A stretch of 64,000 bases of DNA from Selenomonas ruminantium (GTDB lineage Bacteria > Bacillota > Negativicutes > Selenomonadales > Selenomonadaceae), in assembly GCA_902780915.1 (NCBI GenBank), contig CACZHK010000011.1, forward strand, positions 3,767 through 67,766, written 5' to 3'. The notes below the pieces were generated by a model. The model ran no database searches. It saw only the letters and a list, made by a program, of their open reading frames with translations, and had not been told where the DNA came from. Every line of letters starts with the position of its first letter. Positions within the stretch are counted from its first letter, which is position 1. Shown here piece by piece: positions 13,165 to 56,245 of this stretch. The position numbers and the translations under genes are program-made.

Positions 13165-14607
13165 TCAGTCCAACTTAACCACATCGGTATTTGTTTTGTA
13201 AAACTTTGTTCTTGCTTGCTGGCTTGTCAGCAGATATCCCTGTTCAACCAGATTGTTCAGCATCTTGCTGCGCAAGTAGCTTGAATTGCTGACGCCCAAA
13301 TGCTCAGCTATGTCCGCAGCTTTCCGAGCCTGGCTGTAGCAATAGCTCAATACCTTCGCATCATGTTCCGTTCCCTGTGACACTGGCGGGTATGACAATG
13401 TCATTGCATTGCCATTTTCCAGCCCTTCATGATAGGTCAGGTCAGGAAGAACTAAGGTAAAATGATCTGAAGTCGAAGAGATATACGGCTTATGTCTGTC
13501 ATCTGCTGTGGAATATGCCTCTACGATCTTGTCAAAACCTGTACCTGCTGCCTCCATGACATTACAAGCCACCAGCACTGCACAGATAATTTCATTTCTG
13601 CGCTTGGAAATGATATTGGATAGATCATAAGTCACACCTATTTCAGCTCCACGGTAAAAACTCCCCGGCGAGGATATTTCCAGCCTGTCACGGAACATAT
13701 CAATTTGTATCTGTGTACCATCCAGGAAATAGTCTCTATGGGCTATAGCATTTATTACTCCTTCGAATACAGCCCGCTTGGGGTAGGCATCTATGTTTAT
13801 ACGTCCCGTATCTGTCTTCAGCAATGAATGATTCATACGCTGATAAACAAATTCGCAAGTTTTTTTGATAGTCTGGATTATATTGCCTCGAAAGCGGTTC
13901 ACAGTCACAATGCGCTGACTGCCTTTATTAAAGCCGGAAAAGACGGAGCAAGTCACCGCTGTCTTAGCACCATCATAGCTATCAGCAAAAAGCGTACCAC
14001 CATTAGCCAGCAGTCCCTTTTCATCGAAGAAGCCCATTGAGCGCAAAGCCTTGTCAGTATATGCCTTGCCGTTATTATGCTCAGCATAAAAAGCCAGCAG
14101 TTCGCCAAAGTCATTCCTACTGTAACGAGTATCTGATGGCAAAGCATCAAACTGTACATTTTGACTGGCTATACTCATTTCTATTATTTCTTCGTAGGTG
14201 GCGCCATTAGTAAAGCCATCCCGCCTCATGTAAATTGAAGGTATATTTTGATACTTAAGGACCACCGGCCTTGTAGGAGATGTTTCAACCCTTATGTGAA
14301 CTACAAAACGCTCCTTATCCTTTACTGCATATCGTAGAAATTCAATCTTCATTGGGGGACGCGGAACCAAATGTTCATTAACCTGGTTATTGAAGTAGTT
14401 TCTTTCCTTATCAGCTGCCATGCGTTCATAGCCAATAAGTTTGTGAGTCTTATCTTCCACCCCCAGATACATATCCCCCCCGGCGGCATTGGCAAAGCCA
14501 GCAATGGTCTTCAGCCAGCCCACCACATCATCCCGGTTCAGCTTTCCTTTGTATTCCCTTTGACTGTCCTCCAGCTGTACATCAGCCGTCAGTTCCTCCA
14601 AAAACAT
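13165..14607 (-). CDS. Schlafen/AlbA_2-domain ATPase-like protein with C-terminal winged helix
   Basis: N-terminus EDSQREYKG...IAGFANAAGGDMYLGVED is typical of the divergent-AAA AlbA_2 domain. The C-terminus LGVSNSSYLRSKMLNNLVEQGYL looks like a wHTH. RBS GAGGTGA precedes ATG 14607. Confidence 0.7.
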   Translation of the reverse strand: MFLEELTADVQLEDSQREYKGKLNRDDVVGWLKTIAGFANAAGGDMYLGVEDKTHKLIGYERMAADKERNYFNNQVNEHLVPRPPMKIEFLRYAVKDKERFVVHIRVETSPTRPVVLKYQNIPSIYMRRDGFTNGATYEEIIEMSIASQNVQFDALPSDTRYSRNDFGELLAFYAEHNNGKAYTDKALRSMGFFDEKGLLANGGTLFADSYDGAKTAVTCSVFSGFNKGSQRIVTVNRFRGNIIQTIKKTCEFVYQRMNHSLLKTDTGRINIDAYPKRAVFEGVINAIAHRDYFLDGTQIQIDMFRDRLEISSPGSFYRGAEIGVTYDLSNIISKRRNEIICAVLVACNVMEAAGTGFDKIVEAYSTADDRHKPYISSTSDHFTLVLPDLTYHEGLENGNAMTLSYPPVSQGTEHDAKVLSYCYSQARKAADIAEHLGVSNSSYLRSKMLNNLVEQGYLLTSQQARTKFYKTNTDVVKLD

Positions 14608-14631
14608 TTCTTATCACCTCACAATTGAACT

Positions 14632-14684
14632 ACTTCAAATATACTTCAATACAACTTCAATGTCAACTTCAATACAACTTCAAT
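14632..14684 (-). promoter_or_regulatory. Promoter (TTGACA-17-TATATT) embedded in five tandem ATTGAAGT repeats
   Basis: On the minus strand the -35 box is at 14666-14661 and the -10 box at 14643-14638. The plus-strand motif ACTTCAA(T) starts at 14632, 14643, 14654, 14666 and 14677, giving spacings of 11, 11, 12 and 11 nt. Confidence 0.6.
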
Positions 14685-14697
14685 GACTTTATCAACT

Positions 14698-14750
14698 AAA
14701 AAAACCAGCAACAACCGGTGAGGTCTCCCCTCACGGTTGTTGCTGGCTTT
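14698..14750. terminator. Strong bidirectional hairpin terminator, repeat copy A
   Basis: CCAGCAACAACCGGTGAGG-TCTCC-CCTCACGGTTGTTGCTGG (14705-14746), flanked by an A7 run and a T-rich run. It recurs at 25815-25856 with one mismatch. Confidence 0.7.
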
Positions 14751-14803
14751 TCCTATCGGAGGCTTCGTTTATCGTGACCTAGGAAACGATAAGGCAAAAA
14801 CTG

Positions 14804-15931
14804 TCAAGAATTTTCTTTCAATCGTCCCTCTTCAAGCTTCAATCCAGCTTGTTGCGCCAGGAAAACCTGCTTCTGTGTTTCGATTTCTGCCCGAAGCTGC
14901 TCTTCGGTGGGAAGGTACAGCTTGTATTTCGAGGCAAATAGCTGCTCATTGTCATTGAGTATGGAGTAGCGGGCAATATCCTCGTCTGTCTCGGTACACA
15001 GGACAATGCCTAAGGTGGGGTTATCCTCTGGCATTTTCACCAAATCGTCGTACATGCGGATATACATATCCATCTGGCCTACGTCCTGATGGGTAATCTT
15101 CCCCATCTTCAAATCTATCAGCACAAAGCACTTCAGGATATAGTTATAGAAAACGAGGTCGATATAATAGTCTTCCTTTTCCGTGTGAATGCGTTTTTGC
15201 CGTCCGGCGAAGGTAAAGCCCTTGCCCAGTTCCATCATGAAATCCTGCAAATTGTCGATAATCCGTTGCTCAAGTTCTGATTCGTGATAGGCTCTATTCT
15301 CCTGCATACCAAGAAATTCGGCGATATAGGGGCTTTTTATATATTCTAGTTTGTCTTCATAGGGCGAAGCCAGCTCCTTCATTTCTTCACGGACGGATTC
15401 TTTGTCGTATGATTTTAGGATACGGTAATAATACTGGGTGGAGACGTTTCTTTGCAGGGTTTTTACACTCCACATTTCCTTTATGGCTTCCTGTTCATAC
15501 CAATCCCGAGCCGGCTTGTCAAGGACCTGCATCAATACTCGGTAATGTGTCCAGCTTAGCATGTTGAATTTTGCACTCGGCGAATGCAAAATCTCACTCA
15601 AGGATTTTTCCCCTAATTCTGCATTCGACAAATGCAAAATATCGGGATAAGCCTTGTAAAACCTTAGGTATTCATATAAATTCCTCGCACCGAAGCCGCG
15701 ACCATACTTGCCTTTAAGATGCTTGGAAAGTTTAATCATAACTTCAGTTCCATATTCGGCACGATTCTCGCCCTTCAATTCTTCATAGTGAATTCGCTTG
15801 CCTAGCAGCCAGTTCCTAATAGTCAAAATGCTATTCACAGCCCGAAAAGCTTGTTTCTGCATTACTTCTATAATTTGCTCCGCATCGGCATAGATGCTGT
15901 CAGTTTGTTCGTAAATCGTTATTGGTTCCAT
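14804..15931 (-). CDS. YhcG-family PD-(D/E)XK nuclease domain protein (DUF1016)
   Basis: N-terminal AEYGTEVMIKLSKHLKGKYGRGFGARNLYEYLRFYKAYP and the C-terminal nuclease core YYIDLVFYN...VLIDLKMGK. Confidence 0.8.
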   Translation of the reverse strand: MEPITIYEQTDSIYADAEQIIEVMQKQAFRAVNSILTIRNWLLGKRIHYEELKGENRAEYGTEVMIKLSKHLKGKYGRGFGARNLYEYLRFYKAYPDILHLSNAELGEKSLSEILHSPSAKFNMLSWTHYRVLMQVLDKPARDWYEQEAIKEMWSVKTLQRNVSTQYYYRILKSYDKESVREEMKELASPYEDKLEYIKSPYIAEFLGMQENRAYHESELEQRIIDNLQDFMMELGKGFTFAGRQKRIHTEKEDYYIDLVFYNYILKCFVLIDLKMGKITHQDVGQMDMYIRMYDDLVKMPEDNPTLGIVLCTETDEDIARYSILNDNEQLFASKYKLYLPTEEQLRAEIETQKQVFLAQQAGLKLEEGRLKENS

Positions 15932-15962
15932 CAGATCACCTCCCCCCTTCTACGATAAAAGT

Positions 15963-16118
15963 AAACGATAAAGCGCCAAATGTCAAGAATCTTCTCTTAC
16001 TATCCTCTCCTATCTGAATTTTCTTTTAATCGTCTCTCTTCAAGCTTCAATCCAGCTTGTTGCGCCAGGAAAACCTGCTTCTGTGTTTCGATTTCTGCCC
16101 GAAGCTGCTCGTCGGTGG
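15963..16118 (-). pseudogene. Remnant of the 3' end and 3' flank of a second yhcG-like gene
   Basis: 16019-16118 matches 14811-14910 (the last ~34 codons of yhcG) at 97 of 100 positions. The flank motif AAACGATAA..TGTCAAGAAT is also shared. There is no start codon or 5' part. Confidence 0.6.
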
Positions 16119-16203
16119 CCCCCAGTCGACGCTAAGGGGCTTGAATTCTGCGCACAGCGTGCGCACAATCTCTGGACAGACTTTCATAGAACAGAAAAAA
16201 TGC

Positions 16204-19200
16204 TCATATACAATGCATGAACTTCGGAAAATCATCTACTGGCATAAATGTCGCTTCGCCCCCCAAGGCTGCGAAGTGTTCCCTGCCGCACTGTATCTTT
16301 TCCTTCTCCGTCTGACGCAGGGCATCAGCTTCGATATTTCCCTTCGTCTCCAGCACGAAATATAGCTTCTTCTCGCCGTTCTTATTGACCATCACTGCCC
16401 AGTCCGGGTTATATGAGCCTAAAGGGGTGCTTATCTTGAACCAATCAGGCAATTTGGCGTAGAGCAGTATATCTTCGTTCTCCTCAAAGGCCGTGGCAAA
16501 TTTTCTCTCATTTTCGCTATCATAAACCACATAGTTGTATATCCCCTTGTGGCTCTCCAGCATATTGCTTTCCAGGTAGCCCTTCAATTCCTCGGACTCA
16601 AAGAGTTCCTGACAGTAGTATTCGCTGTCACCTATGCGCTGATACTTTATGCCATCAACTATCAGAGATTTCATCACTGAGCGCAGGATCTTGGCAGTGT
16701 TTTCCATAAACACCTGGGGATTTTTCTGAAAATCCTTCAGACGGTTGCCATAATCGTCAAATGGAATCCAGCTGCCTTCAGCATTTTGCCTGGTACCCGT
16801 CAGCAACTCCACGATAGTACGGCGGGTCAGATTGGTTTCATTCTGCAGATAGGCTACAATATCCGGCAGTATGTGGTGCGAACCATATGTACTTACTGCC
16901 CTGTCTGCCACCACCTTCGTATCAACACCACCTGTCCCTATATAGAGATCAGCCTTAGTCTGAATGATTTTCGGGGAAGGTATCTTCATTTCCAACGCCA
17001 TCTGCTTGCGACAGCGCCGCAAAAGTTCATCGGTGGAGAAATTTACTCGATAGGTGGTCTTCCATTTGATGCTGTCCCAGAGTTCCTTGAATTCCGGTGA
17101 CAGGAATACTTCCTTGTTGATGGCAGCTTCCCGCCGTTCCCTCTTTTGATGGATAGGAACCGTCCTGCAGGCCTGCATACAAATTTCCTGTATCTGGGAC
17201 TTGTAGGGAGCCAGTTCCTCTGCTACCGCGAATTTGTTCTGCTGTATATCGGCTTTCAGCGATTCCTGAATATTGCCCTGTTCGTCCACATAGCCATATT
17301 CTTTCAGCGATTCCATGACCATTTCGGCCTTCTCTGCGCCCAGATAGGAAGTTTCTCCCCTTGCCACACCTGTTGCAGAGTCATCTGTGGATTCGGGTAC
17401 AAGGATATTGGCAAAGTTTGCCACTTCCAGCACTTTGAAGCGGATGCCGTCTTCCTCATACTCCTTCTGCAAATTGCTTGCAAACTCCTCATAGCTTTCA
17501 TTGGCCATCACCGTCAAGATATTCAGATTGGCATCATACTGCCTTTCCCCCGTCTGATTGACACACAGGCGCAGGCCACGGCCAATTTCCTGACGCTTCT
17601 TGATGGTGCTCTTGGTTTCATTCAGAGTACAAATCTGGAACACATTGGGATTGTCCCAGCCCTCCCGCAGGGCAGAGTGAGAAAAGATGAAGCGAATTTT
17701 GCAGTCAAAGGACAGCAGTCTTTCCTTGTCCTTCATGATGAGATTGTAGGTGCTATCATCTGCCGCCGTAGAACCACTGGTATCCTTCCAATGTCCCGGC
17801 TCATTCTTCTTGCCCTTATCAGCAGAGAAGTAGCCGTCATGGGTAAGCTCGGCCTCGTCTTCTTCATTGTGCAGGCTGTGCCACAAATCGTGATACTTGG
17901 GACGGCGAATCACATCCTGATAGATTTCTTCAAACCACTTGGCATACTTGCCTTTTACGGCGTTGCCCTCAGCATCATATTCACGGTAGTTGGCCACCCG
18001 GTCGATGAAAAACAGAGAAAGAACCTTTATCCCCTTGGGATTCAGCTCCAGCTCCTTGTTCAAATGCTCCTCAATGGTCGCCCGCATCTGCTGACGCTTC
18101 ATCTCATCATCGTGGACAGTGCCGATAGGCTTGCCCAGACGAAGAATATCGCTGCAGCTGGTGAAGTCCATGTACTCATTGCCTTCTCCGCAGTAAATAT
18201 CCTTGACGATATAGCCCTCGTATACATCACGGCCACCGGATTTTTCATAGAGGTCATCCCCCTGCTTCACGGTAACGGCTTTCCGCTGGACAACACCCTT
18301 TTTGTTCTGCACATCCATTTCCACCCGGGCCGTGATGGGAGATTTCTTGTTGTTGACAGATTTCAGGAGCAGATAGGCTTCGTTGTGGTCATCCTGGGTA
18401 GCAAAGCTCTCCACCTCGATACCCTTGACCAGCTTCTTGGCAAAGCTATCTACGGCGTTTAGGCGGTAGAGTTTGTTCTCCACACGGATAGGCGTTGCGG
18501 AGTAGCGGATAGTACAGAGAGGGTTCAGAGATTCAACCGCCTCCACCTGGGCATCGGTACTGATGGTGGACTGCGGTTCGTCAATCACGACAATGGGCTT
18601 GGTTTCGCGAACCAAATCAATGGGCTTGGACTCGCCAAACTTCTTGTCATTGTAACGGTTAATCAAGTTTAGGTCATTCTGGAAGGAATTGATGGTCATG
18701 ACCATGATCTGTATATCGCTCGCCGTGGCAAAATCGCGGATTTTCTCGATATGCTTGCCATCATAGACAAAGGCATCATAATTCACATTGCTATATAGCC
18801 CCCGGAAATGCTCACGGGTTATCTCAATGGTCTTCTGCACACCTTCCTTGATGGCTACGCTGGGCACCACGATGATGAACTTGGTAAAGCCGTAGGCTTT
18901 ATTCAGTTCCAGCAAGGTACGCAGGTAAACATAGGTCTTGCCGGTGCCGGTTTCCATCTCAATATCCAGATTCAATTTATGGTTAGGCAAAGCCTTGGAC
19001 TGTGGCAGGCCATACCGCAGCTGAACTGCACGAATATTGTTCAGCAAATCTTCCCCATCAAGCATCAGCCGATTGCCAATGCCCTGCCCCAAGGTCAGTT
19101 GCTGGCTTTCACTGCCAAAGCCCAATGTCATCTGCTCATTCGTAATATCAGCCACAGTAAACAAGGACTGTTTCGGCGTTTGTCCCTGAAATACATCACG

Positions 19201-19257
19201 AACAGCGGCAATAGCTTCCTGCTGGTAGTCGAGGGCAGCATCAAATTTCAGTTTCAT
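16204..19257 (-). CDS. res: Type III restriction endonuclease, Res subunit
   Basis: SF2 motor motifs METGTGKT and VIDEPQ. C-terminal PD-(D/E)XK core NPDWAV...LETKG. N-terminus MKLKFDAALDYQQEAI is typical of type III Res. Confidence 0.9.
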   Translation of the reverse strand: MKLKFDAALDYQQEAIAAVRDVFQGQTPKQSLFTVADITNEQMTLGFGSESQQLTLGQGIGNRLMLDGEDLLNNIRAVQLRYGLPQSKALPNHKLNLDIEMETGTGKTYVYLRTLLELNKAYGFTKFIIVVPSVAIKEGVQKTIEITREHFRGLYSNVNYDAFVYDGKHIEKIRDFATASDIQIMVMTINSFQNDLNLINRYNDKKFGESKPIDLVRETKPIVVIDEPQSTISTDAQVEAVESLNPLCTIRYSATPIRVENKLYRLNAVDSFAKKLVKGIEVESFATQDDHNEAYLLLKSVNNKKSPITARVEMDVQNKKGVVQRKAVTVKQGDDLYEKSGGRDVYEGYIVKDIYCGEGNEYMDFTSCSDILRLGKPIGTVHDDEMKRQQMRATIEEHLNKELELNPKGIKVLSLFFIDRVANYREYDAEGNAVKGKYAKWFEEIYQDVIRRPKYHDLWHSLHNEEDEAELTHDGYFSADKGKKNEPGHWKDTSGSTAADDSTYNLIMKDKERLLSFDCKIRFIFSHSALREGWDNPNVFQICTLNETKSTIKKRQEIGRGLRLCVNQTGERQYDANLNILTVMANESYEEFASNLQKEYEEDGIRFKVLEVANFANILVPESTDDSATGVARGETSYLGAEKAEMVMESLKEYGYVDEQGNIQESLKADIQQNKFAVAEELAPYKSQIQEICMQACRTVPIHQKRERREAAINKEVFLSPEFKELWDSIKWKTTYRVNFSTDELLRRCRKQMALEMKIPSPKIIQTKADLYIGTGGVDTKVVADRAVSTYGSHHILPDIVAYLQNETNLTRRTIVELLTGTRQNAEGSWIPFDDYGNRLKDFQKNPQVFMENTAKILRSVMKSLIVDGIKYQRIGDSEYYCQELFESEELKGYLESNMLESHKGIYNYVVYDSENERKFATAFEENEDILLYAKLPDWFKISTPLGSYNPDWAVMVNKNGEKKLYFVLETKGNIEADALRQTEKEKIQCGREHFAALGGEATFMPVDDFPKFMHCI

Positions 19258-19268
19258 CGTCCCTCACC

Positions 19269-21176
19269 TCACACGCACACAAAGCTGTCTTCATCAAGGC
19301 CTGCCGCTTTCAGCGTTTCCTTGACGTTGGTCTTGTCCATATCCGAGGCAAAGCCCGTATCACGGAATACCACCTGCCAAAGATCCGACTCATATTCCTC
19401 ATGCAGTTTCACCACGGCTTCAGCTACAGCAGTAGTAATCTTCTGCCCCAGACAAATCATCAGGGCACCGCCGCCGATAATGTAGACCGTTTCTCCGGCA
19501 GCCTGTTCTTCCTCTACCTGGCACGTCAGCTCCAGTCCCATTTTGAGCATGATTTCATAGAGCACATCATGCTCCGTGCGGTCAGGCAGGAAATTGTCCG
19601 TGGCTTGTTGCAAAGTCATCACCAAATCATCCGGCTGAGGATTCCATTTCTGCAGATTGGAGCTGTCCAGCTTAAAGACCTTAAAGCCAATATCTAAATC
19701 AGCCGCCTTATCGCCAGCTTCTGCCTTTATTTTATCCCCGGCACGACGAATACGTTCTTTGCCAATTTCGCAGATATTTTTGTAACCTGACTTGTAGGCT
19801 TCACTCTTTTTGTTAGTTGACTCAGGAAGCTGTACCATAATGAATTTACGGTGACCACCATCTTCGACGTTTAATTGCATAACAGCATGGGCAGTTGTAG
19901 CCGACCCAGAGAAAAAATCCATTACAATATCTTCACTTTGAACAAATCCTAGAAACAGCAATTTATTCAAAAGGCTAGTCGGTTTTGGCGTATCGAATGG
20001 AATATTATTGAAAATGCTTTGCAATTCTTTACTAGCCACAGTAGTAGTTCCTATCTTATCTCCAGAAAACCAGCTATTATCAATAGATCCAAAATCTTTC
20101 TTTTCATTATAAAAAGATTTCATTTGTGGCCGCCCATTACCGTTTCTTCCAAAAATGATTCTTCCATCAGCTAAGGCACTGGAAAATTTTTCTTGTGAAA
20201 TTCTCCAGCACCTCCCACTAGGTGGGAGGTGCTGTTCTCCTGTCTTAGGATTTGTCACCGGATATGTGAGATTCGGTCTTACATTTGGTGCATCAAACGG
20301 GTCTGCCTTCCATAAGCCTCGCGGGTCATTATCTGGGTTATCAAATTTATCCTTATCTAACGGTAACGGCCGAAATACAAATGAATCTCTTTCATACCAT
20401 TTATTTGCATTTCCCTCCTTTAATCTTCTATTCTCTAAACGACGTTTTCTTGCATATACCAGTAAATACTCATGATTAACACTTAAATCAGTATCATTTT
20501 GCATTGACAATCTTGATTGCCAGGGTATGCATGCAGCAAGATTATTTTCACCAAACGCCTCGTCACAAATGCGTTTAAGATTCCCTTGTTCATTATCATC
20601 TATACTAATAAAAATAACGCCATCATCCGTCAGCAGATTTCTTGCTAATCTCAAGCGAGGATACATCATATTCAGCCAATTTGTATGAAACCGTCCATTT
20701 GCTTCTGTATTAGTATCAATCTTATCACCTTCATCATTAACTTGTCCTGTAAGTTCCTTGTAATTCTCTATATTATCCCTAAAGTCATCTTTATAGACAA
20801 AATCACTACCCGTATTATACGGCGGGTCAATATAAATCATCTTCACTTTCCCATAATAGGATTTCTGCAACAGCTTCAATACTTCCAGATTATCCCCTTC
20901 GATATAGAGATTTTCCGTATTGTCCCAATCCTTGCTTTCCTCCTTACAGGGACGCAAAGTTCCCATAGAAGGTGTTTGAGACAAGCGCAGTGCCTTGCCC
21001 TTGCCATTCCATTTAAAGCTATACCTTTCCTGTTCATCATCTACAAAATCGCCCAGCAGCTGCCGCAGGACATCAAAATCTATTTTCCCTTCCTCAAAAG
21101 CCTCCGGGAAAAGCTGCTGCATGGCTTTCAGATTTTCCTCTGTGATATTCATGGACTCGCCTGTTAATTTCTTCAT
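19269..21176 (-). CDS. mod: Type III DNA methyltransferase, Mod subunit (beta-class N6A/N4C)
   Basis: Motif IV IYIDPPYNTG precedes motif I DFFSGSATTAHA (beta order). An 11-nt gap separates it from res. Confidence 0.9.
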   Translation of the reverse strand: MKKLTGESMNITEENLKAMQQLFPEAFEEGKIDFDVLRQLLGDFVDDEQERYSFKWNGKGKALRLSQTPSMGTLRPCKEESKDWDNTENLYIEGDNLEVLKLLQKSYYGKVKMIYIDPPYNTGSDFVYKDDFRDNIENYKELTGQVNDEGDKIDTNTEANGRFHTNWLNMMYPRLRLARNLLTDDGVIFISIDDNEQGNLKRICDEAFGENNLAACIPWQSRLSMQNDTDLSVNHEYLLVYARKRRLENRRLKEGNANKWYERDSFVFRPLPLDKDKFDNPDNDPRGLWKADPFDAPNVRPNLTYPVTNPKTGEQHLPPSGRCWRISQEKFSSALADGRIIFGRNGNGRPQMKSFYNEKKDFGSIDNSWFSGDKIGTTTVASKELQSIFNNIPFDTPKPTSLLNKLLFLGFVQSEDIVMDFFSGSATTAHAVMQLNVEDGGHRKFIMVQLPESTNKKSEAYKSGYKNICEIGKERIRRAGDKIKAEAGDKAADLDIGFKVFKLDSSNLQKWNPQPDDLVMTLQQATDNFLPDRTEHDVLYEIMLKMGLELTCQVEEEQAAGETVYIIGGGALMICLGQKITTAVAEAVVKLHEEYESDLWQVVFRDTGFASDMDKTNVKETLKAAGLDEDSFVCV

Positions 21177-21191
21177 TGCGAATTGCTCCCT

Positions 21192-21902
21192 CTATTCCAT
21201 TATGCTTTTCTGTTCTCGTTTCAGTTTCTGCAAGCGGGTATTCAGCTCCATCTTGCGATTAAACTGACTCTCCTTCTTCATCTGAATGCGCAGGCTGTTC
21301 ATTTCCTGCTCGATAGCTTGGAGCCGTGCCACTTTCTCTCTGGCCTCGTCACCAGATATTTCCTCCACAGCCACAGACAAGGCTGACAAGTGACTTTTGC
21401 TGATAGCATCAAACCAGGCTTCATACAAAACACAGAAATTAGCAGCCATCATTTTGTTTAGTGCCATGTCCTGCCAGAATTTGTCATCTTCTGCCAACCA
21501 CGCCGTACTTTCCACCTCAGTCAGCGTCATGCGTTCACTGTCAGCCTGACTCTGGCGCAGCCTGCCCATATGGAGCTGCACCTTATCCCCCAGGCGGAAG
21601 AATAACAGCATGGGATAAGGAATTGCCCGCATGATTACCTCGGACAGCCGCTTTAGCTGCTTTTCCTCCCGCAGATTGACTTCCAGCACTTCTATCTCCG
21701 GATAATCCCTCTCTCCATCGCTGAAAGGCTGTATAAAAGTATTTTCCGTTTTCAAGGCAAAGAGCCAGCGGATTTTCTCCACATGCTCAAAAAGTTTCTT
21801 GTCTGCCGTTGATAAGTCACCATTATCATAAAACTGCTTCTTGGCAACCACCCTGTCAATCCACGCTGCAGAAGGCAAACCCATTATCTCGTAAATATTC
21901 AT
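21192..21902 (-). CDS. Hypothetical protein, probably DUF4391 family
   Basis: 236 aa with no catalytic motif recognised. ATG 21902 lies 8 nt after the SNF2 stop. The DUF4391 call is from my memory of how the gene between an SNF2 helicase and a type III mod is usually annotated, not from a search. Confidence 0.5.
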   Translation of the reverse strand: MNIYEIMGLPSAAWIDRVVAKKQFYDNGDLSTADKKLFEHVEKIRWLFALKTENTFIQPFSDGERDYPEIEVLEVNLREEKQLKRLSEVIMRAIPYPMLLFFRLGDKVQLHMGRLRQSQADSERMTLTEVESTAWLAEDDKFWQDMALNKMMAANFCVLYEAWFDAISKSHLSALSVAVEEISGDEAREKVARLQAIEQEMNSLRIQMKKESQFNRKMELNTRLQKLKREQKSIME

Positions 21903-21910
21903 AGGCCACC

Positions 21911-24900
21911 TCACTTCAATATCAGGAAAGCCACCAACTCAAAATCAGCCATGCCATCATCTACATTCTGCGGTACAGCTGTGCCGCCTTTGCTAAAGAG
22001 ACTGGCTACGCCCACTTCCTGCTTCTTGCCGATCAAATCTTCAATGGTCTTTTGCAACAAAGCAGAATATCTATCCATATATCTGCCGTGTTTGGTTTCC
22101 CGATTGAATACCTCTGCTAAATCCTTGGCCACAGTTTTCTGCCCCGAACAGAATTTCTTCAGATAATCCAACACCTGCTTGCCCTGCAGGAAATTGGCCT
22201 GCACTTCCCCCTCATCGGTAATATAGGCCAGATAGTAGGGAAACAGTGCGTTTTGTTCCTTGGTCTGTCTGGCACCTTTGATTTGCCGCAGGACAAAGAT
22301 TACACCAGGCTTTACCGCATCACGCAAATTATCCGAGATATGAGCAAGGGCATACAAACCGCTGGGAGCATTTGCTAGTTCTGCCTCATGCTCCTTCATA
22401 TATTCCATCAAATCAATCTTGAAGTCATTGAAGGTTAGATCTGTAATGGAAATACCGCCAGAAATATCTTCCAAATCCACCACTTCATTCTGAAGTTTCT
22501 GCAACTGTTTCTTGCGATACTCCAAATCGTTCATTTCCTTGGAGGTCTGTTCATCAATGATATTTTCTTCTCCAGTGGCAGAAACATCTAAAAGCACCAT
22601 GCGTCCTTTGACCCGCTCTGCAAGGTCAATGTAGGCATCGAGGTCGTCAGTGGGCCAAAAGTTCAATAGCTGGATAACCTCATTTTTCGAGCCAATGCGG
22701 TCAATTCGTCCAAACCGCTGAATAATGCGTACAGGATTCCAGTGTATATCGTAGTTAATCAGATAATCACAGTCCTGCAAATTTTGACCTTCGGAAATAC
22801 AATCAGTAGCAATCAAAATATCAATTTCTTCCTGCATATCCGGGAATATGCTTTGGCCAGATTTTGATATAGGCGAAAACAAGGTAAGCACCGTATTGAG
22901 GTCAGAAAGTTTTATGCTGCGTTTTAACGATGAAGGAATGGGTATGGTAGACTTGTTCGTGCCTGTACCGCCCGTTACCAAAGCCGTATAAATTCCCAAT
23001 GGTTCCATCTGCGGTGCGATATTTTCATACAGATATTCTGCAGTATCGGCAAAGGCTGTAAAAATAATCAGCTTGCCATTACCTGCATTGATGGGATTCT
23101 GTATTTTATCTGCTATTCTGCTTTTGAGGGTCTGCAGTTTATTATCCCGCCTTGGCGTAATAACCGTGGCACTTTGCAGTATTTGCCTGAGTTCTGCTAA
23201 ATCAATTTCCAAATCCTGCCGCCATTTGATCAAATCCATATCCTGCAATAACACTTTGACCTTGCTGCCGAAAACCAAATCGCCAATGTCCAGGCCTTCC
23301 TCATCAAAGTCCAGTTCCTCGATATTCAAATCCGCATGATACTCCCCTTCATGCTTTGCAATGATTTCCAGGGTATGCTCTATTCGCTGGGAAATCTTCT
23401 CCACCGTCAGCACAAAGGAATGAATTGAGCTTTCCATGCGTTTCAGAAGATTTACCCGCATCAAGTGAATAAGCTGATTCTCACGGTCAATCTGCCGGAA
23501 TACGCTGCGTCCATCCCCTACAGTCATATCGTAACGACTTTCATACGAATGACGTTTATTCGGACGTACATAGCGGAGAGGTGCATATAGGCCCAATGTC
23601 AGGCGGTTGATCATCTTATTGACTTCGCCAATGGGCGGAAACTCACCCAGGGTATCAATTTCCGGACACTCGTTAATCGGTTTCAACCGTGTGGGGAATC
23701 TACCGATTTCCGCCACATTGTAATACTTCTCAATATGCTTGCGAGAGCGGGCAATGGTCAGAGTATCCAGCAGTTTGAAATACTCCAGATCCATCATTTC
23801 CACGAAGGCCTTAGTTGTACGCTCCCTTTCAGGCAATTCTGACCAACGGTTGAAAACCATCTGCGCTTTCCGCAGAGTTGTTTCTATATTGGGAATCCCT
23901 GCGGGCTTCAGGGCATCATTCCTACCCTCCGTGATGAAGGCAATCTGATTTTTGATATCGTTCATGCGATTGTTGACTGGCGTTGCCGACAGCATCAGCA
24001 CCTTGGTCTTGACGCCTGCCTTGATGATATCTTCCATCAGCCGTTCATAACGGGTCTTGCGGTCTTTGTGGGGAATATTATTGCGGAAGTTATGACTTTC
24101 GTCTATCACGATGAGATCGTAATTCTCCCAATTCAGCGTAGACAGGTTGATGGCCCCGGAAAGGCCTTTGTAGCGGCTTAAATCCGTATGATTCAACACA
24201 TCATAGTTGAACCTGTCAGCTGCAAAGATATTCCGCTTGTCATTCTGAGTGTATATCGTCCAGTTCTCCCGCAGTTTCTTGGGTGCCAGCACCAGCACCC
24301 TGTCATTGCGCAGTTCGTAATACTTGATGATGGCCAGTGCCGTAAAGGTCTTGCCCAGGCCTACGCTATCCGCAATGATGCAGCCACCGTATTTTTCTAT
24401 CTTGTCAATGGCCCCCATCACTCCGTCACGCTGGAACTTGTAGAGCTTATTCCAGATCAGTGACTCCTTGATGCCAGTCTTGGTCTTGATGATGGTTTCT
24501 TCCGTCAGTTCTCCCAGATAGGCTTCAAAGATATGATAGAGAGTAATGAAGTAGATGGCCTCCGGCGTATTTTCCTTGTAGAGCACCTCCATTTCAGAAA
24601 GCACCTTTTCTGTCACATCTTCCACTACGGCGGGATTGTTCCATATTCCCTCAAAGAGCTGCAGGAACCCCTGGGTCATGGTTCTCCCGTACATGCAGGT
24701 ATTGGCATCATTCCGCGCCGAGGGTGTAATCCCCAGACCATCACTGGAAAAGTCCACCGTCCCCTGAATGGCAATGTCCTTTTCCGGGTCAACACTCTCC
24801 ACATAGGCCAGCCGCATCTGTGCAGGATTGTTTTCCCGATAAGACTTGATGCTGACTTTCTTCCTCAGCCACTGCGCACAATCCTTAGCAATAGCAGATT

Positions 24901-25198
24901 GCGTCAACTTATTTCGCAGCTTCAACTCAAATTCGTTGCCGAACAGCCTGTTGCCCAACTCACGATGGGCAATATAGAATTCCCGCTGGAAATCCCTTTC
25001 CTGCTTGAGATACGACGGCGTAGTAAAGATAAAACGCAGCTCGTCTATCTGAGACAGCTCTTTTTTCAGTTCTTCATAGGCGTAGATGGTGAAGTATGCT
25101 GAAATTACAGACATTTTAGCTCCTGGCTCTATTCCCTGGCGAAGCTCATCAATCACCCGCCCCTGCTGTTTGTTGTCCAGTATCTTAGGTGGTCGCAT
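21911..25198 (-). CDS. SNF2/RAD54-family helicase with a long uncharacterised N-terminal domain
   Basis: Motifs ADSVGLGKT, VIDESHNFRN and HWNPVRIIQRFGRIDRIGS. The start is trimmed to ATG 25198 (MRPPKILDNKQQ) after GGGGGAGAG. Confidence 0.85.
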   Translation of the reverse strand: MRPPKILDNKQQGRVIDELRQGIEPGAKMSVISAYFTIYAYEELKKELSQIDELRFIFTTPSYLKQERDFQREFYIAHRELGNRLFGNEFELKLRNKLTQSAIAKDCAQWLRKKVSIKSYRENNPAQMRLAYVESVDPEKDIAIQGTVDFSSDGLGITPSARNDANTCMYGRTMTQGFLQLFEGIWNNPAVVEDVTEKVLSEMEVLYKENTPEAIYFITLYHIFEAYLGELTEETIIKTKTGIKESLIWNKLYKFQRDGVMGAIDKIEKYGGCIIADSVGLGKTFTALAIIKYYELRNDRVLVLAPKKLRENWTIYTQNDKRNIFAADRFNYDVLNHTDLSRYKGLSGAINLSTLNWENYDLIVIDESHNFRNNIPHKDRKTRYERLMEDIIKAGVKTKVLMLSATPVNNRMNDIKNQIAFITEGRNDALKPAGIPNIETTLRKAQMVFNRWSELPERERTTKAFVEMMDLEYFKLLDTLTIARSRKHIEKYYNVAEIGRFPTRLKPINECPEIDTLGEFPPIGEVNKMINRLTLGLYAPLRYVRPNKRHSYESRYDMTVGDGRSVFRQIDRENQLIHLMRVNLLKRMESSIHSFVLTVEKISQRIEHTLEIIAKHEGEYHADLNIEELDFDEEGLDIGDLVFGSKVKVLLQDMDLIKWRQDLEIDLAELRQILQSATVITPRRDNKLQTLKSRIADKIQNPINAGNGKLIIFTAFADTAEYLYENIAPQMEPLGIYTALVTGGTGTNKSTIPIPSSLKRSIKLSDLNTVLTLFSPISKSGQSIFPDMQEEIDILIATDCISEGQNLQDCDYLINYDIHWNPVRIIQRFGRIDRIGSKNEVIQLLNFWPTDDLDAYIDLAERVKGRMVLLDVSATGEENIIDEQTSKEMNDLEYRKKQLQKLQNEVVDLEDISGGISITDLTFNDFKIDLMEYMKEHEAELANAPSGLYALAHISDNLRDAVKPGVIFVLRQIKGARQTKEQNALFPYYLAYITDEGEVQANFLQGKQVLDYLKKFCSGQKTVAKDLAEVFNRETKHGRYMDRYSALLQKTIEDLIGKKQEVGVASLFSKGGTAVPQNVDDGMADFELVAFLILK

Positions 25199-25256
25199 AA
25201 ACTCTCCCCCTGCGTAAATTTTATGAGTAGCAGAGATACCTATTTCGCATAGTTTA

Positions 25257-25285
25257 ATTATATATTCGTTTTTCGAATATATCAA
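25257..25285 (-). promoter_or_regulatory. Near-consensus promoter of the SNF2 operon, overlapped by a perfect palindrome
   Basis: Minus strand reads TTGATA (25285-25280), 17 nt, then TATAAT (25262-25257). The inverted repeat ATATATTCG-N5-CGAATATAT (25260-25282) fills the spacer and touches both boxes. Confidence 0.6.
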
Positions 25286-25353
25286 ATGACTTTTTATTCA
25301 CTAAATAGATAAAAAAGCCATTAGTCACCTATCATTAACACAGGGTGATGAAA

Positions 25354-25704
25354 ATGTCTTTCGGCGATAGACTGAAAAGCTATAGAAAATATCACAATTA
25401 CAGTCAGTGCCAGATGGCTCAAAAACTTGGTATCAGCCAGTCTGTGTATAGCAGATACGAGTCCGGGGGGCTTGAGCCTTCCATAACTACTCTAAAGAAG
25501 ATATCCATTTGTCTCAATGTTTCTATTGATTACTTGTTAGAAAATTATGAGGATTATAGTTCTCAGGACATAGTTGACTTTGAATATTACATTCTCCACG
25601 GCAACTACTCCCTATACTCAAAAACACCTACCCCCGATGACCGGCAGATGATCAGCACCATCATCAAGGCCATCTTTGACCACAGCAAATTCCGTGCGAA
25701 ATAG
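25354..25704 (+). CDS. XRE-family helix-turn-helix transcriptional regulator
   Basis: HTH segment LKSYRKYHNYSQCQMAQKLGISQSVYSRYESG. It is divergent from the SNF2 operon. The ATG at 25354 has the best spacing to AGGGTG; the track ORF starts at 25345. Confidence 0.8.
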   Translation: MSFGDRLKSYRKYHNYSQCQMAQKLGISQSVYSRYESGGLEPSITTLKKISICLNVSIDYLLENYEDYSSQDIVDFEYYILHGNYSLYSKTPTPDDRQMISTIIKAIFDHSKFRAK

Positions 25705-25807
25705 GACTTCGCCTCCCTAAAGGGACTAGCTTCGCGTCGCTACGCCCTTACACGAAATCTAATCTACCACGGCGCCTTGCGGCCTGTGCTCGCTAAGATT
25801 TCACAGC

Positions 25808-25862
25808 AAAAAAGCCAGCAACAACCAGTGAGGTCTCCCCTCACGGTTGTTGCTGGCTCTTT
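25808..25862. terminator. Strong bidirectional hairpin terminator, repeat copy B
   Basis: 25815-25856 is identical to 14705-14746 except for one base (A for G at repeat position 13). It lies between the convergent XRE and Rpn genes. Confidence 0.7.
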
Positions 25863-25944
25863 GCTGTTCTGACAAAAACTCTCACAATATCTGCAGGACA
25901 AAAGCACTACTAGCCAGCAGTGCAACGCTAATCATTTCCTTTTA

Positions 25945-26886
25945 TTACCACCTGCTATTCACCAATGCTGTTGCCTTGTCATTTGTGAGAGCATAGTTCT
26001 CTACAATCTGCTCTATAACTGCATCTTTGCTTAGCTTCAGCTTTTTGAGCATTGAAACTGCCTTAAGTATAGCATCATTGCGGGCTTCTTCCTTCATATC
26101 TTCAATGGCCTTGCACACATTGACCGCCTCCTCTCCCACAGGGATGTTGAAATCTACATTTGAACAAATGCTGATAGTCTGAGCCGCTAGACGAGACAAG
26201 CTAGTATAACAGGGATTTTCTTCCAGGAGCTTGGTCAAGCCATCCTTGTCGCCAGAGTGCTTGATGAATTTCAGCACATCCCTCAAATCAGATTTGAAAA
26301 TGCCCAGTTCCTCGTCGCTCATCAAGGAAGGAGACACGAGGTTTACCTTGTAATCCGCCACATATTGCAACAACCGAGGGTTTATTCCCTCAGAGTACAT
26401 TTCCCGCAATGACAATGGCGCATCCCAAGGCTCCGCCCCCCAATGAATAACAATTGTTATCACAGGCAGCACTCTATCCTCACGATGGAAACCGCTCAAA
26501 AATTCTGCCGTGTCTTTGCCGTAATCGCCTGCCTGACGGTAGGAGCGGGACGCCGCTTCCACCTGGCCTATCAGGGACAGGACATCATAAAGCATATTTC
26601 TTATGGGCATAGCGGTATGGACTTTGCTCTGATTTTCCACACCAAGTAGGCAATAAGCCGCCTTACCGTCAGTTTTCAAGAGCATTTTCAAAAGATCTCT
26701 GTCCTTTTGTACGGGATTTGCCGTTCCATCTTTGCCATATGGCAGAGCAATGCTGGCTGTGTCCATTTCCCGCAAATTTTCGGGTTTGATGACTTCCTCG
26801 CCTCCGAAACAATAACCGTTAAAAAGGTCAGCAAACTGTCTTGGCTGCTTCATGTATTCTTTAGTGACGGAATCTTTATCACTCAA
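25945..26886 (-). CDS. Rpn-family recombination-promoting nuclease / putative transposase (PD-(D/E)XK)
   Basis: N-terminal FADLFN motif, a D...LLGVENQS core resembling the (D)...ExQ signature of YhgA/Rpn proteins, and a helical C-terminal tail. Confidence 0.6.
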   Translation of the reverse strand: MSDKDSVTKEYMKQPRQFADLFNGYCFGGEEVIKPENLREMDTASIALPYGKDGTANPVQKDRDLLKMLLKTDGKAAYCLLGVENQSKVHTAMPIRNMLYDVLSLIGQVEAASRSYRQAGDYGKDTAEFLSGFHREDRVLPVITIVIHWGAEPWDAPLSLREMYSEGINPRLLQYVADYKVNLVSPSLMSDEELGIFKSDLRDVLKFIKHSGDKDGLTKLLEENPCYTSLSRLAAQTISICSNVDFNIPVGEEAVNVCKAIEDMKEEARNDAILKAVSMLKKLKLSKDAVIEQIVENYALTNDKATALVNSRW

Positions 26887-49400: not shown

Positions 49401-50146
49401 TCCTCGTTGGCAGGCTCGCCGGGACGGAGACGCTTGTAAATCTCCACCACAGCCTTGCCCTGGCTCTTGACCTCCTCGCCGTCACGTTCGATGGTGGCAG
49501 CAATACGGGGATCATTGCCAAAGAGCTGGAGTATTTCCTGGTCAGAAGCAAAGCCCAAAGCACGGATGAAATAAGTCACGGGCATCTTGCGGGTGCGGTC
49601 GATGCGGACGGACACGATATCATTGGTATCCGTCTCCAGCTCGATCCAGGCCCCGCGGTTCGGGATGACAGTAGCATTGTAGAGCTTCTTGCCGGTGGGG
49701 TCAATCTCCTCGCCATAGTAGGCACCGGGAGAGCGAACCAGCTGGCTGACGATGACACGCTCTGCACCATTGATGATGAAGGTGCCGGTATCGGTCATCA
49801 GGGGGAAATCCCCCATGAAAACTTCCTGCTCCTTGATCTCGCCGGTCTCGCGATTGATGAGACGGACATTGACGCGCAGGGGAGCAGCCCAGGTCACATC
49901 GCGTTCCTTGCACTCATCGAGGTCATACTTAGGCTCTCCCATAGAAAAGCTTTCAAAGGAGAGGACAAGATTTCCGGAGAAATCCTGGATTGGCGAAATG
50001 TCACGGAAGATCTCCTGCAGCCCCTCATCCAGGAACCACTTGTAGCTCGCCCGCTGGATATCCAGCAGGTGAGGCATTTCCATGACTTCCTTGATTCTGG
50101 CGTAGCTATACCTGGTTCTTTTGCCCACCGGCACAGGATTAAACAT
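46418..50146 (-). CDS. rpoB: DNA-directed RNA polymerase subunit beta
   Basis: Conserved blocks throughout ([16 protein letters not shown], the rif region, GRHGNKGV). The likely ATG is 50146 (MFNPVPVG); the track ORF starts at GTG 50158. Confidence 0.97.
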
Positions 50147-50334
50147 TAAATCCTTCACCCCTTAGCCTGATTTTCACTAATTACTTCTTGAACAATAAGA
50201 ATAACACATGAACACAAAGAAAACACGGAAAATGAAGTCAGAAAAAAAAACAAGGCATCCATCAAAACACACCTTGCTTCCATTCCCTTTCCGCTTGCGC
50301 ACAGTTACCCCTATTCAATTTCCTGTAGTTTATA

Positions 50335-50363
50335 ACTTTACCATAAGAAGAAACCTTTGTCAA
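50335..50363 (-). promoter_or_regulatory. Putative rpoB promoter
   Basis: Minus strand reads TTGACA (50363-50358), 17 nt, then TAAAGT (50340-50335), about 180 nt upstream of rpoB. Confidence 0.4.
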
Positions 50364-50430
50364 GGGTGAAAAATAACTTCTTCACCCCTGATAAATTTAC
50401 ATTCTCTTCCTAATTATATAATGAAAGCTT

Positions 50431-52104: not shown

Positions 52105-52361
52105 GACAACGCCTCCCTCGCACAGCCTCTCAGCAGCTTGGCATATCATCTGCCAGTCGCTTTTGCACTTCCCTATCCCAGGCCAACAACAAAGCTGCAT
52201 ATTTGCTCTTAATCAGCTTATATACCTCCAGTGCTGTTGCTTCATTATATTGTACCACGAAGCCAGCCACAATGGATAAATTCCTCAAGCTTGAAATACA
52301 AAAATGGCCTGCTTATTTCAACTTAGACATCCAAATTGAAACAAACAGGCTTACCCGTCAA

Positions 52362-52408
52362 ACAAAAAAGCCGTGAGGCTGCGGACCGTAGTCCGCTTCC
52401 TCACAGCT
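52362..52408 (-). terminator. Intrinsic terminator after rplL
   Basis: Minus strand reads GCTGTGAGGAAGCGGAC-TACG-GTCCGCAGCCTCACGGC followed by TTTTTT. Confidence 0.7.
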
Positions 52409-52440
52409 TCCAAATGACTTGACTATGCAGTCAAACTGAA

Positions 52441-52812
52441 TTACTTCAGCTCAACGGTAGCGCCAGCCTCTTCGAGCTTCTTCTTCAGCTCTTCAGCCTC
52501 AGCCTTGGCAACGTTCTCCTTGACAGCAGCGGGAGCGCCATCAACAAGAGCCTTAGCTTCCTTCAGGCCGAGACCAGTAGCCTCACGAACAGCCTTGATA
52601 ACGTTGATCTTCTTGTCGCCAGCGGAAGCGAGCATAACAGTGAACTCGCTCTTCTCCTCAGCAGCAGCACCAGCAGCAGCGCCGGGGGCAGCTGCAACAG
52701 CAACAGGAGCAGCAGCGCTAACGCCGAACTTCTCCTCCATAGCCTTAACGAGCTCGGACAGCTCCAGGACAGTCATGCTCTCAATGGCTTCCATGATTTC
52801 TTCTTTAGTCAT
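52441..52812 (-). CDS. rplL: 50S ribosomal protein L7/L12
   Basis: Ala-rich hinge and the C-terminal domain [20 protein letters not shown]. Confidence 0.95.
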
Positions 52813-52907
52813 TTCAATATACCTCCAATTTAATCTTTCGTTTAATTCTTATTCAACGGTACTAGGTACCAACGGCGAAGCATTTATCTTCGTCATGCAA
52901 GGTGGCC

Positions 52908-55997: not shown

Positions 55998-56074
55998 TGG
56001 TGGCGGCACAGAGACTTGAACTCCGGACACTGCGGGTATGAACCGCATGCTCTAGCCAGCTGAGCTATGCCGCC
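55998..56074 (-). tRNA. tRNA-Met, elongator (anticodon CAT)
   Basis: 77 nt with a GGCGGCA acceptor, anticodon loop TTCATAC and an encoded CCA. It lacks the initiator features. Confidence 0.85.
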
Positions 56075-56082
56075 AATATATA

Positions 56083-56158
56083 TGGAGCTGATGACCAGGA
56101 TTGAACTGGTGACCTTATCCTTACCAAGGATACGCTCTGCCGACTGAGCTACATCAGC
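56083..56158 (-). tRNA. tRNA-Thr (anticodon GGT)
   Basis: 76 nt with anticodon stem TATCC/GGATA, loop TTGGTAA and an encoded CCA. Confidence 0.9.

Positions 56159-56169: not shown

Positions 56170-56245
<76 letters not shown>

Follow-up and report, generated by a model that had tools for sequence, protein, structure and literature searches.

A widespread and apparently undescribed four-component variant of type III restriction-modification, examined from a Selenomonas ruminantium locus

Cleavage by type III restriction-modification (R-M) systems is ATP-dependent and involves two inversely oriented, unmethylated copies of an asymmetric site, which is methylated on one strand only (hemimethylated). 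Class 1 DISARM, as Ofir and colleagues reportedly described it in 2018, is assembled from an SNF2 ATPase, a PLD protein and an adenine methylase. Here we analyze a locus that has parts in common with both systems, located in a stretch of 64,000 nucleotides from Selenomonas ruminantium (positions 3,767 to 67,766 of contig CACZHK010000011.1, assembly GCA_902780915.1; hereafter, the window). Four minus-strand genes, spanning positions 16204-25198 of the window, encode in order of transcription an SNF2-family ATPase, a DUF4391 protein, and the Mod and Res subunits of a type III system. This cassette represents a widespread four-component variant of type III R-M that is apparently undescribed.

The nearest published architecture found is that of the 'Type-2 BREX-related' (Type-2 BR) system, in which an HKD-Swi2/Snf2 helicase is accompanied by a DUF499 ATPase, an N6-methyltransferase and a DUF3780 protein (PMC12839542). 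A second point of reference is C3a139 'HKD+Snf2' (PDLC01075), which Shah et al. (2018) list among the candidate accessory genes that accompany type III CRISPR-Cas (PMC6546367). A recent study of the lactococcal defensome, in which plasmids bearing the cassette were sequenced, takes a type III system to consist of one R and one M gene, and the lactococcal type III system Lcr007I, which may belong to the cassette clade or to another, gave moderate phage protection when cloned (PMC12418389). A preliminary description of the locus, made from its sequence alone, had known of no functional account of the accessory SNF2-DUF4391 pair; full-text literature searches, with most subscription journals and REBASE outside their coverage, likewise returned no published description of the architecture or of DUF4391 function. 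Standard tools file such loci as ordinary type III R-M and overlook the two upstream genes, which carry the PGAP names 'helicase-related protein' and 'DUF4391 domain-containing protein'.

The four proteins and their operon

The two distal genes of the operon make up a type III core. Mod (635 aa; 19269..21176, minus strand) is a beta-class N6-adenine DNA methyltransferase, in which DPPYNTG precedes DFFSGSATT in the order typical of that class, and it matches PADLOC MTase_III (2.9e-233), Pfam N6_N4_Mtase (4e-30) and the Mod subunit of EcoP15I (4zcf_A, 4e-69). Res (1017 aa; 16204..19257, minus strand) combines a superfamily 2 (SF2) ATPase with a C-terminal PD-(D/E)xK nuclease, carries the motifs METGTGKT (Walker A), DEPQ and NPDW...ExK, and matches PADLOC REase_III (E=0), Pfam ResIII and RE_endonuc (1.5e-36) and the Res subunit of EcoP15I (4zcf_C, 2e-67). 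Its score against NCBIfam PRK15483 (374 bits) is under the cutoff of 564, and Res therefore belongs to a divergent clade. The DPPY motif of Mod, the Walker A, DEPQ and PD..ExK motifs of Res and motifs I, II and VI of SNF2 are invariant in the 36 four-gene loci compared (36/36), and hence each cassette is predicted to encode three active enzymes, with one nuclease and one dead PLD domain. Motifs, PADLOC, Pfam and homology to EcoP15I all agree on the type III core recognized in the preliminary description, and the motifs it had read in Mod, Res and SNF2 (DSVGLGKT, DESH and QRFGRIDR in the latter) are present and share this invariance.

The first gene of the operon (21911..25198, minus strand) encodes a 1095-aa SNF2-family ATPase that matches SNF2-rel_dom, ResIII and Helicase_C in Pfam and Sth1, RapA and Snf2 in the PDB. 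Its sole full-length named match is the PADLOC 'HKD+Snf2' model C3a139 (1.6e-143), and the fused architecture had thus already been catalogued; the models for DrmD, BrxH, HmaA, ZacC and DpdE match only the motor, and do so well under their family cutoffs. Early inspection had found no nameable motif in the first ~270 aa of this protein. No Pfam match is indeed present in its first 260-270 aa, even at E<=10, but homologues and structure prediction identify the region as an inactivated PLD/HKD-fold domain (approximately residues 1-200; 24599..25198, minus strand) followed by a helical linker. Relatives that are 35-51% identical over the N-terminus carry PF13091 (PLDc_2) and PF09565 (RE_NgoFVII) above Pfam cutoffs, and the window sequence aligns to one PF13091-positive relative with 35% identity (E=6e-55). 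On alignment, the window reads PAQMRLAYV...GTVDFS where active relatives have LLHGKMYHI...GSSNFT; QMR takes the place of HGK and GTVD that of GSSN, and the catalytic His and Lys and the Asn are all substituted. An AlphaFold 2 (AF2) model of the N-terminal domain, with a predicted local confidence score (pLDDT) of 75 overall and >85 in the core, retrieves SauUSI as its best Foldseek match (7CLG, E=7e-7), followed by Zucchini, NgoAVII-R, BfiI, Nuc and NucT, at a probability of 1.00.

The loss of the PLD active site is a general feature of the cassette. The H-x-K pair is missing from all full-length cassette SNF2 proteins in each of the two sets of loci introduced below (38/38 and 38/38, that is, 76/76), and the inactivation is hence ancestral to the DUF4391-linked clade. 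Since the catalytic H and K are lost throughout, Res is predicted to be the sole intact nuclease of the operon. The one locus with an active-HKD relative and a readable neighbourhood lacks DUF4391, Mod and Res nearby; two other active-HKD sister loci end at a contig edge and are uninformative on neighbours. At its other end, the SNF2 protein has a conserved C-terminal domain (approximately residues 900-1095; 21914..22498, minus strand), seen in the clade alignment and conservation profile, for which there is no Pfam match and no PDB sequence match.

The second gene (21192..21902, minus strand) encodes the 236-aa DUF4391 protein, the proposed adaptor. It matches PF14335 with an E-value of 2.1e-55 (188.6 bits against a cutoff of 29.9) over residues 7-230, confirming the family label given in the preliminary description. 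Beyond this family, profile searches that could have placed the protein in a characterized one returned only a PHROG entry of 'unknown function': NCBIfam and PADLOC, which holds no DUF4391 model, give no match, and a profile search against PDB sequences was empty. An alignment-based AlphaFold model (pLDDT 92, predicted template modelling score, pTM, 0.85) consists of an alpha/beta N-domain (residues 1-135) followed by three long helices, with an acidic N-domain (isoelectric point, pI, 5.0) and a basic C-terminal tail (pI 9.6), and Foldseek finds no significant structural relative for it in the PDB (best E=0.055, TM <0.2) or in BFVD.

An exhaustive profile search over 1.84 billion representatives yielded 2305 DUF4391 clusters, defined at 50% identity, at E<=1e-3. 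Nearly all members are stand-alone proteins of 235-270 aa; one representative of 469 aa, with ~220 extra N-terminal residues that have no Pfam match, is the only such case among the 150 matches listed and may reflect either a genuine fusion or an error of gene calling. Conservation across the family is limited to K21, Y67, E69, an I-P-Y-P strand and a C-terminal helix motif, KKExQFNRxxELN. A catalytic-looking triad is absent across the wide family, bearing out the initial impression that the protein lacks a catalytic motif. Assignment as a PD-(D/E)xK or other known nuclease was considered on account of a suggestive Y-P-E-x-E-x-x-E strand in close relatives, and was rejected: E71 and E74 vary family-wide, Foldseek searches of the PDB and BFVD gave nothing under E=0.03 (TM <0.25), and the PDB profile search, as said, was empty. 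We read the features of DUF4391 as those of a putative adaptor or binding protein, and not of an enzyme.

In their longest forms, the four open reading frames (ORFs) run at 16204..19257 (1017 aa, ATG), 19269..21176 (635 aa, ATG), 21192..21914 and 21911..25285. The ATG at 21902 (236 aa) is the favoured start of DUF4391, as the N-termini of the family align at MNIYE, and the ATG at 25198 (1095 aa) is favoured for SNF2 by an identical gene call on independent metagenome contigs; the upstream TTG at 25285 is disfavoured because it lies inside the promoter. Direct reading of the junctions gives TGA-ggtggcct-ATG (8 nt) between SNF2 and DUF4391, TAG-agggagcaattcgca-ATG (15 nt) between DUF4391 and Mod, and TGA-ggtgagggacg-ATG (11 nt) between Mod and Res, with mod directly upstream of res on the same strand. 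A GGAGG-like Shine-Dalgarno site stands ahead of the start at each of these three junctions, and GGGGGAGAG precedes the SNF2 ATG at 25198. The operon is driven by a sigma-70-type promoter, TTGATA-17 nt-TATAAT (25257..25285, minus strand), that scores 11/12 and is the sole minus-strand match of at least 10/12 in 15900-25950; promoter-like matches in total equal the shuffle expectation, and the 11/12 match alone stands out. The gene layout of the preliminary description thus stands in full: its four genes, coordinates and gaps of 8, 15 and 11 nt, its Shine-Dalgarno site for every gene and its single near-consensus promoter were all recovered. The operon contains no tandem repeats suggestive of mod phase variation, and it lies within a low-GC island at ~13-27 kb of the window (GC content 0.43-0.49, against ~0.57).

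Conservation, mobility and surroundings of the cassette

Related loci were gathered in two ways. One genome per GTDB species was scanned with DUF4391 patterns, which gave 53 loci (the GTDB set), and an independent scan of metagenome contigs with divergent DUF4391 proteins, 22-35% identical to that of the window, gave a further 80 (the metagenome set). Hosts in the GTDB set comprise Negativicutes, Clostridia, Tissierellia, Bacteroidota, Spirochaetota, Planctomycetota, Proteobacteria and a metagenome-assembled genome of Methanosarcina, the closest loci being those of Selenomonas and Mitsuokella (66-76% identity). At the assessable loci of this set, DUF4391 has SNF2 immediately upstream in 42/44 and Mod downstream in 38/39, and Res comes after Mod in 29/29; gene order and strand do not vary. 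Figures for the metagenome set are similar, with SNF2 adjacent in 48/53 loci (and in three more with an insertion of ~4 kb between the two genes), Mod in 43-44/45 and Res in 22/22. The SNF2 stop overlaps the DUF4391 start in many relatives, and DUF4391 without Mod is seen on one or two short contigs at most.

Besides these four, no gene family recurs in more than 11/133 loci, and hence the conserved unit consists of exactly four genes. The accessory genes are kept in ~90-100% of assessable related loci, a content at variance with the two-gene definition of type III. Tabulated across genomes, as had been proposed at the outset, the accessory pair is thus linked to mod and res, with order and strand unchanged, in nearly all assessable loci, and this supports the view that SNF2 and DUF4391 are not chance neighbours of mod and res.

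In many related loci the cassette is interrupted by variable cargo of 0.5-6 kb, which sits at the DUF4391-Mod or Mod-Res junction or, sometimes, at the SNF2-DUF4391 junction (such loci include L007, L009, L010, L013, L015, L020, L024, L025, L029, L035, L048, L066, L071, L072 and L093). The cargo includes membrane proteins, insertion sequence (IS) elements and ORFs that resemble, by eye and without a family scan, PIN, Bro-N, Fic/DOC, AbiEii, RhuM and ATPase genes, and the cassette junctions seem to be hotspots for extra defence-type genes. In one environmental cassette (L080, 10763-14682), two full-length Mod genes stand in tandem between DUF4391 and Res.

The cassette is also found on plasmids. 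It occurs on an IncF plasmid of Escherichia coli (pCPWW7-IncF, NZ_CP075717, 25504-34844) and in 10/5426 complete E. coli genomes, on conjugative plasmids of Enterococcus faecium, where a small helix-turn-helix (HTH) gene lies upstream, and on plasmids of Listeria (pLI100-type), Enterococcus faecalis, Lactococcus, Acinetobacter, Vibrio, Methanomethylovorans and Bacillus cereus. Acinetobacter sp. NEB149 (NZ_CP051210) is among the carriers. It is present as well in an Erysipelothrix element deposited as a phage (MF172979.1, 'Erysipelothrix phage phi1605'). In this record the cassette sits between the macrolide-resistance genes mef(A)/msr(D) and site-specific recombinases, and its DUF4391 is mis-annotated as a 'methyl-accepting chemotaxis protein'; the record resembles an integrative element more closely than it does a lytic phage.

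Plasmid matches to the window Res fall into two tiers, with full-length matches at 33-50% identity forming the cassette clade and canonical EcoP1/EcoP15-type proteins lying at ~27%. Seven upper-tier records without a DUF4391 match in tblastn were inspected. Those of B. cereus, E. faecalis and Listeria proved to be full four-gene cassettes, and in the last two the DUF4391 slot is occupied by a 185-aa 'hypothetical protein' that Pfam (33.4 bits, cutoff 29.9) and hhalign (E=1.8e-6) identify as a shorter form of DUF4391. Mod and Res alone are present on a 14-kb plasmid of S. hominis and on the Lactococcus plasmid pUCCL627D, the latter with ISS1 exactly at the junction; the Aeromonas copy is fragmented by IS elements, and a Rhodococcus record, a more distant and partial match at 34% identity, has Mod and Res without the accessory pair. 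Small E. faecalis plasmids retain only a C-terminal stub of DUF4391 (residues 129-185) beside Mod-Res. Because of these Mod/Res-only plasmids, IS junctions and DUF4391 stub, set against a pair almost always accompanied by Mod/Res, the dependence is asymmetric: the pair practically never occurs without Mod/Res, whereas Mod/Res can persist alone as apparent deletion derivatives. Across this Res clade as a whole, four genes are the ancestral arrangement and also the dominant one.

In the window, the operon faces a divergent gene (25345..25704, plus strand) for a 119-aa XRE-family HTH protein (Pfam HTH_3, 7e-16; PADLOC Control_protein, 2.3e-7, and HTH_VI), a candidate controller of the operon. None of the 53 GTDB loci has a homologue of this protein next to the cassette, and the small HTH gene that precedes the E. 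faecium cassette is a different one. Two copies of a 54-nt terminator-hairpin repeat, D2 (left copy 25808..25861, right copy 14698..14751, neither assigned to a strand), bracket exactly the 11.1-kb block XRE-SNF2-DUF4391-Mod-Res-YhcG. The copies are 94% identical, are the only two in the window and fold at -50 kcal/mol (z=-10.5), and are probably where an inserted defence block begins and ends. The intergenic space that immediately follows the Res stop, ahead of a complete yhcG, holds a 103-nt, 97% identical copy of the yhcG 3'-end (16016-16118, against 14808-14910), apparently left over from a previous copy of the gene or from recombination. D2 repeats and yhcG copy together point to insertion or recombination at this locus.

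Next to the island lie mfd at one end and citMHS/pyrG/argS at the other, an arrangement shared by metagenome contigs. Two more candidate defence genes are located downstream of the operon within the island, at 13165-15931 (minus strand), and encode a YhcG/DUF1016 PD-(D/E)xK protein (PADLOC candidate PDC-S02, 7.6e-134) and a Schlafen AlbA_2 plus HATPase_c_4 protein. At its upstream edge (25945-26886, minus strand) lies a YhgA-like protein (Transposase_31/Rpn-type) whose terminator is one of the D2 copies. A second low-GC patch at ~50000-53000 (0.46-0.47, against ~0.57), with four tRNA genes (Met, Thr, Met, Met) nearby at 55998-56346, may be another acquired segment.

A proposed composite system and the alternatives to it

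Our preferred reading, to which we give an even chance of being right, is that the four genes form one composite R-M system derived from type III. In such a system Mod, probably a dimer as in EcoP15I, would recognize an asymmetric site and methylate an adenine, thereby marking self DNA, and Res would serve both as ATP-dependent switch and, through its PD..ExK domain, as the only nuclease. The SNF2 protein would be an active, ATP-driven translocase of double-stranded DNA, its inactivated PLD domain being kept presumably as a DNA- or protein-binding module. DUF4391, which would be translated in step with SNF2, may serve, without enzymatic activity of its own, as an adaptor that binds SNF2 and links it to Res/Mod. 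The pair would then constitute a Mod/Res-dependent accessory translocase module that probably broadens or strengthens restriction. It might move DNA between sites, making cleavage less reliant on passive sliding and on head-to-head sites or, alternatively, it might clear proteins from invading DNA. The observed basis of this reading is made up of domain identities, motif states, operon structure, linkage, co-divergence and asymmetric dependence; from these we infer the complex of four proteins, the adaptor role of DUF4391 and the contribution of the motor.

A more ambitious version, which we put forward tentatively and consider possible rather than probable, is that the SNF2 protein with its inactivated PLD domain and DUF4391 define an unrecognized and widespread class of four-component ATP-dependent R-M systems. 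A remodeller-type motor would in that case be coupled to Mod/Res through an adaptor of novel fold, altering the rules of type III, for instance by lifting the head-to-head requirement or by overcoming DNA-protecting phage proteins, and the class would be an evolutionary bridge from type III to DISARM-like systems.

Co-divergence was measured by mirror-tree comparison of pairwise distance matrices for the 36 cassettes with four full-length genes. The matrices of the four proteins correlate with r=0.74-0.90, the tightest pairs being SNF2-DUF4391 (r=0.90) and DUF4391-Res (0.85), and the partial correlations (DUF4391-SNF2 0.69, DUF4391-Res 0.53, SNF2-Res ~-0.1, DUF4391-Mod ~-0.12) would weakly fit a DUF4391 that bridges SNF2 and Res. 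Several considerations weigh against the composite reading, beginning with these correlations, which are only suggestive, as sequence pairs are non-independent through shared phylogeny and p-distances are partly saturated. Inserted cargo loosens strict translational coupling of DUF4391 to Mod and of Mod to Res. Mod-Res-only derivatives persist on plasmids, and the pair is hence not needed to maintain the R-M system; the core can probably stand on its own, which would make the pair a supplement and not an indispensable component, one that may not change restriction at all. Finally, a benefit through site communication or protein clearing would be speculation, built on the known behaviour of SNF2 motors and type III enzymes.

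A dependent pair beside a self-sufficient core is equally what would be expected of a guard or backup device, in which SNF2-DUF4391 is held inactive by an autonomous Mod-Res and freed, as a second defensive line, when a phage anti-restriction protein disables Mod/Res, and for which PrrC in the EcoprrI type I system sets a precedent. The pair is always with Mod/Res and Mod/Res sometimes alone, DUF4391 co-diverges with Res, and backup effectors embedded in R-M and BREX operons are a described theme (PMC12839542). Nonetheless, no toxic or effector domain is recognizable, the PLD domain being dead in 76/76 proteins and DUF4391 devoid of a catalytic signature, and guards are usually patchy add-ons, whereas the four-gene form is ancestral and dominant in its Res clade; we therefore regard a guard as unlikely. 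The four genes could also be two independent systems travelling together, a plain type III R-M system and a separate SNF2/DUF4391 system for defence or DNA maintenance. Defence genes do cluster in islands, and this one also holds YhcG-like and Schlafen/AlbA_2 genes; moreover, cargo between DUF4391 and Mod shows that tight coupling is not universal, and Mod-Res works as a unit elsewhere. Such independence is, however, improbable given that order, strand and adjacency are kept in ~130 loci across distant phyla and archaea, with DUF4391 at 22-35% identity, that the pair is essentially never found alone or with another partner, that all four proteins co-diverge (r=0.74-0.90), and that it is the cassette clade in particular to which Res matches at 33-50% identity belong, canonical Res being at ~27%.

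Kinship with DISARM bears on a further explanation, according to which the SNF2 protein with its inactivated PLD domain stands for DrmC plus DrmD and Mod for DrmMI, Res replacing DrmA/DrmB as the arm that senses and cuts DNA, in a methylation-gated blocking or degradation of incoming DNA. The SNF2, PLD and adenine methylase parts are those of class 1 DISARM, and the next-best named matches of the SNF2 protein are indeed DrmD models (PADLOC 3.9e-35, NCBIfam 144 bits). On plasmids of B. cereus, moreover, drmA, DUF1998 (drmB), SNF2, DUF4391, Mod and Res form one packed six-gene operon with overlaps or gaps of <=33 nt (NZ_AP022875.1, 16724-30457), and the cassette can accordingly be wired to DISARM components. 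This fusion is seen only there, and DrmA/DrmB were rejected as regular partners of the cassette: phmmer searches with the B. cereus proteins found neither in the window nor in the 133 related loci, and no DUF1998 is present among the island proteins. The DrmD matches are partial, and 144 bits compares with a cutoff of 610; the SNF2 protein appears to be related to DrmD, and not an equivalog. With a dead PLD domain, Mod and Res that are bona fide EcoP15I homologues, and a DUF4391 that is no DISARM component (no PADLOC match), we give a DISARM-like mode of action little credence. Lastly, the pair might be regulatory, delaying restriction or promoting methylation upon entry into a new host, or remodelling DNA for access by Mod. 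The cassette is highly mobile, on plasmids and on elements resembling integrative and conjugative elements, such R-M systems need establishment control, and SNF2 enzymes do remodel protein-DNA complexes. Yet establishment of R-M systems is normally controlled by small C-proteins, an HTH gene is already at the locus, and a motor of 1095 aa whose ATPase motifs are invariant is an expensive means of regulation. We know of no precedent for the regulation of R-M by such a motor pair, and consider it very improbable here.

Whichever role the pair plays, the cassette gives context to DUF4391, a large orphan family of ~2300 clusters. Its presence on conjugative or mobilizable plasmids of E. coli, E. 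faecium, E. faecalis, Listeria monocytogenes, Lactococcus and B. cereus lends it clinical and industrial relevance, and the E. coli and Listeria plasmid versions make its function directly testable. If SNF2-DUF4391 alters restriction, a large orphan family would be explained, a new use of remodeller-type motors in bacterial immunity would come to light, and there would be a bearing on what limits the transfer of plasmids and phages in bacteria of food-borne and clinical importance.

Comparison with described systems

The preliminary description had seen in the locus a composite, DISARM- or BREX-style defence machine. That proposal is supported in part: the pair is linked to mod and res and is no chance neighbour, and the drmA/drmB operon of B. 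cereus lends the DISARM analogy some ground, but the hallmark genes of DISARM and BREX are missing. Among the eight island proteins, Pfam and PADLOC detect no PglZ, BrxC/DUF499, PglX-type methylase or DUF3780, and matches of the SNF2 protein to BrxHI/HII models are partial (6.8e-28). No active DrmC was found either, the sole PLD fold being the one fused to SNF2, without catalytic H and K. In the absence of DrmA, DrmB, active DrmC, PglZ and BrxC, the locus is a member of neither DISARM nor BREX. It resembles class 1 DISARM in uniting an SNF2 ATPase, a PLD fold and an adenine methylase. Unlike that system, it carries its PLD domain on the SNF2 protein and in an inactive state, has a type III Res as its nuclease, and includes DUF4391, which is foreign to DISARM.

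Three other systems share the fusion of a PLD or HKD domain to a motor. The Type-2 BR system has, like the cassette, an N-terminal HKD domain fused to Swi2/Snf2, a small stand-alone DUF protein and an N6-adenine methylase, whereas its HKD domain is the active primary effector; the cassette has no DUF499 or DUF3780, and its methylase is a type III Mod that comes with Res (PMC12839542). SauUSI (7CLG), an ATP-dependent type IV restriction enzyme, shows the same succession of N-terminal PLD, SF2 motor and C-terminal domain, and yet in SauUSI one chain forms a modification-dependent nuclease whose PLD site is active, in contrast with the dead PLD domain and SNF2-type motor of the cassette, which is tied to a methylase/nuclease pair. 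C3a139 was described as a lone CRISPR-neighbouring gene, without function and without a link to DUF4391 or type III R-M, and inactivation of the HKD domain was apparently not remarked (PMC6546367).

The closest relationship is with the canonical type III systems EcoP15I and EcoP1I (4ZCF). Mod and Res of the cassette are clearly homologous to the canonical pair: Mod is of the beta class, Res joins an SF2 motor to a C-terminal PD-(D/E)xK nuclease, and the mod gene immediately precedes res. The canonical systems, however, consist of two genes only, and their Res proteins, ~27% identical, form a clade separate from that of the cassette, which ancestrally adds an SNF2 protein with an inactivated PLD domain and DUF4391 upstream in the same operon.

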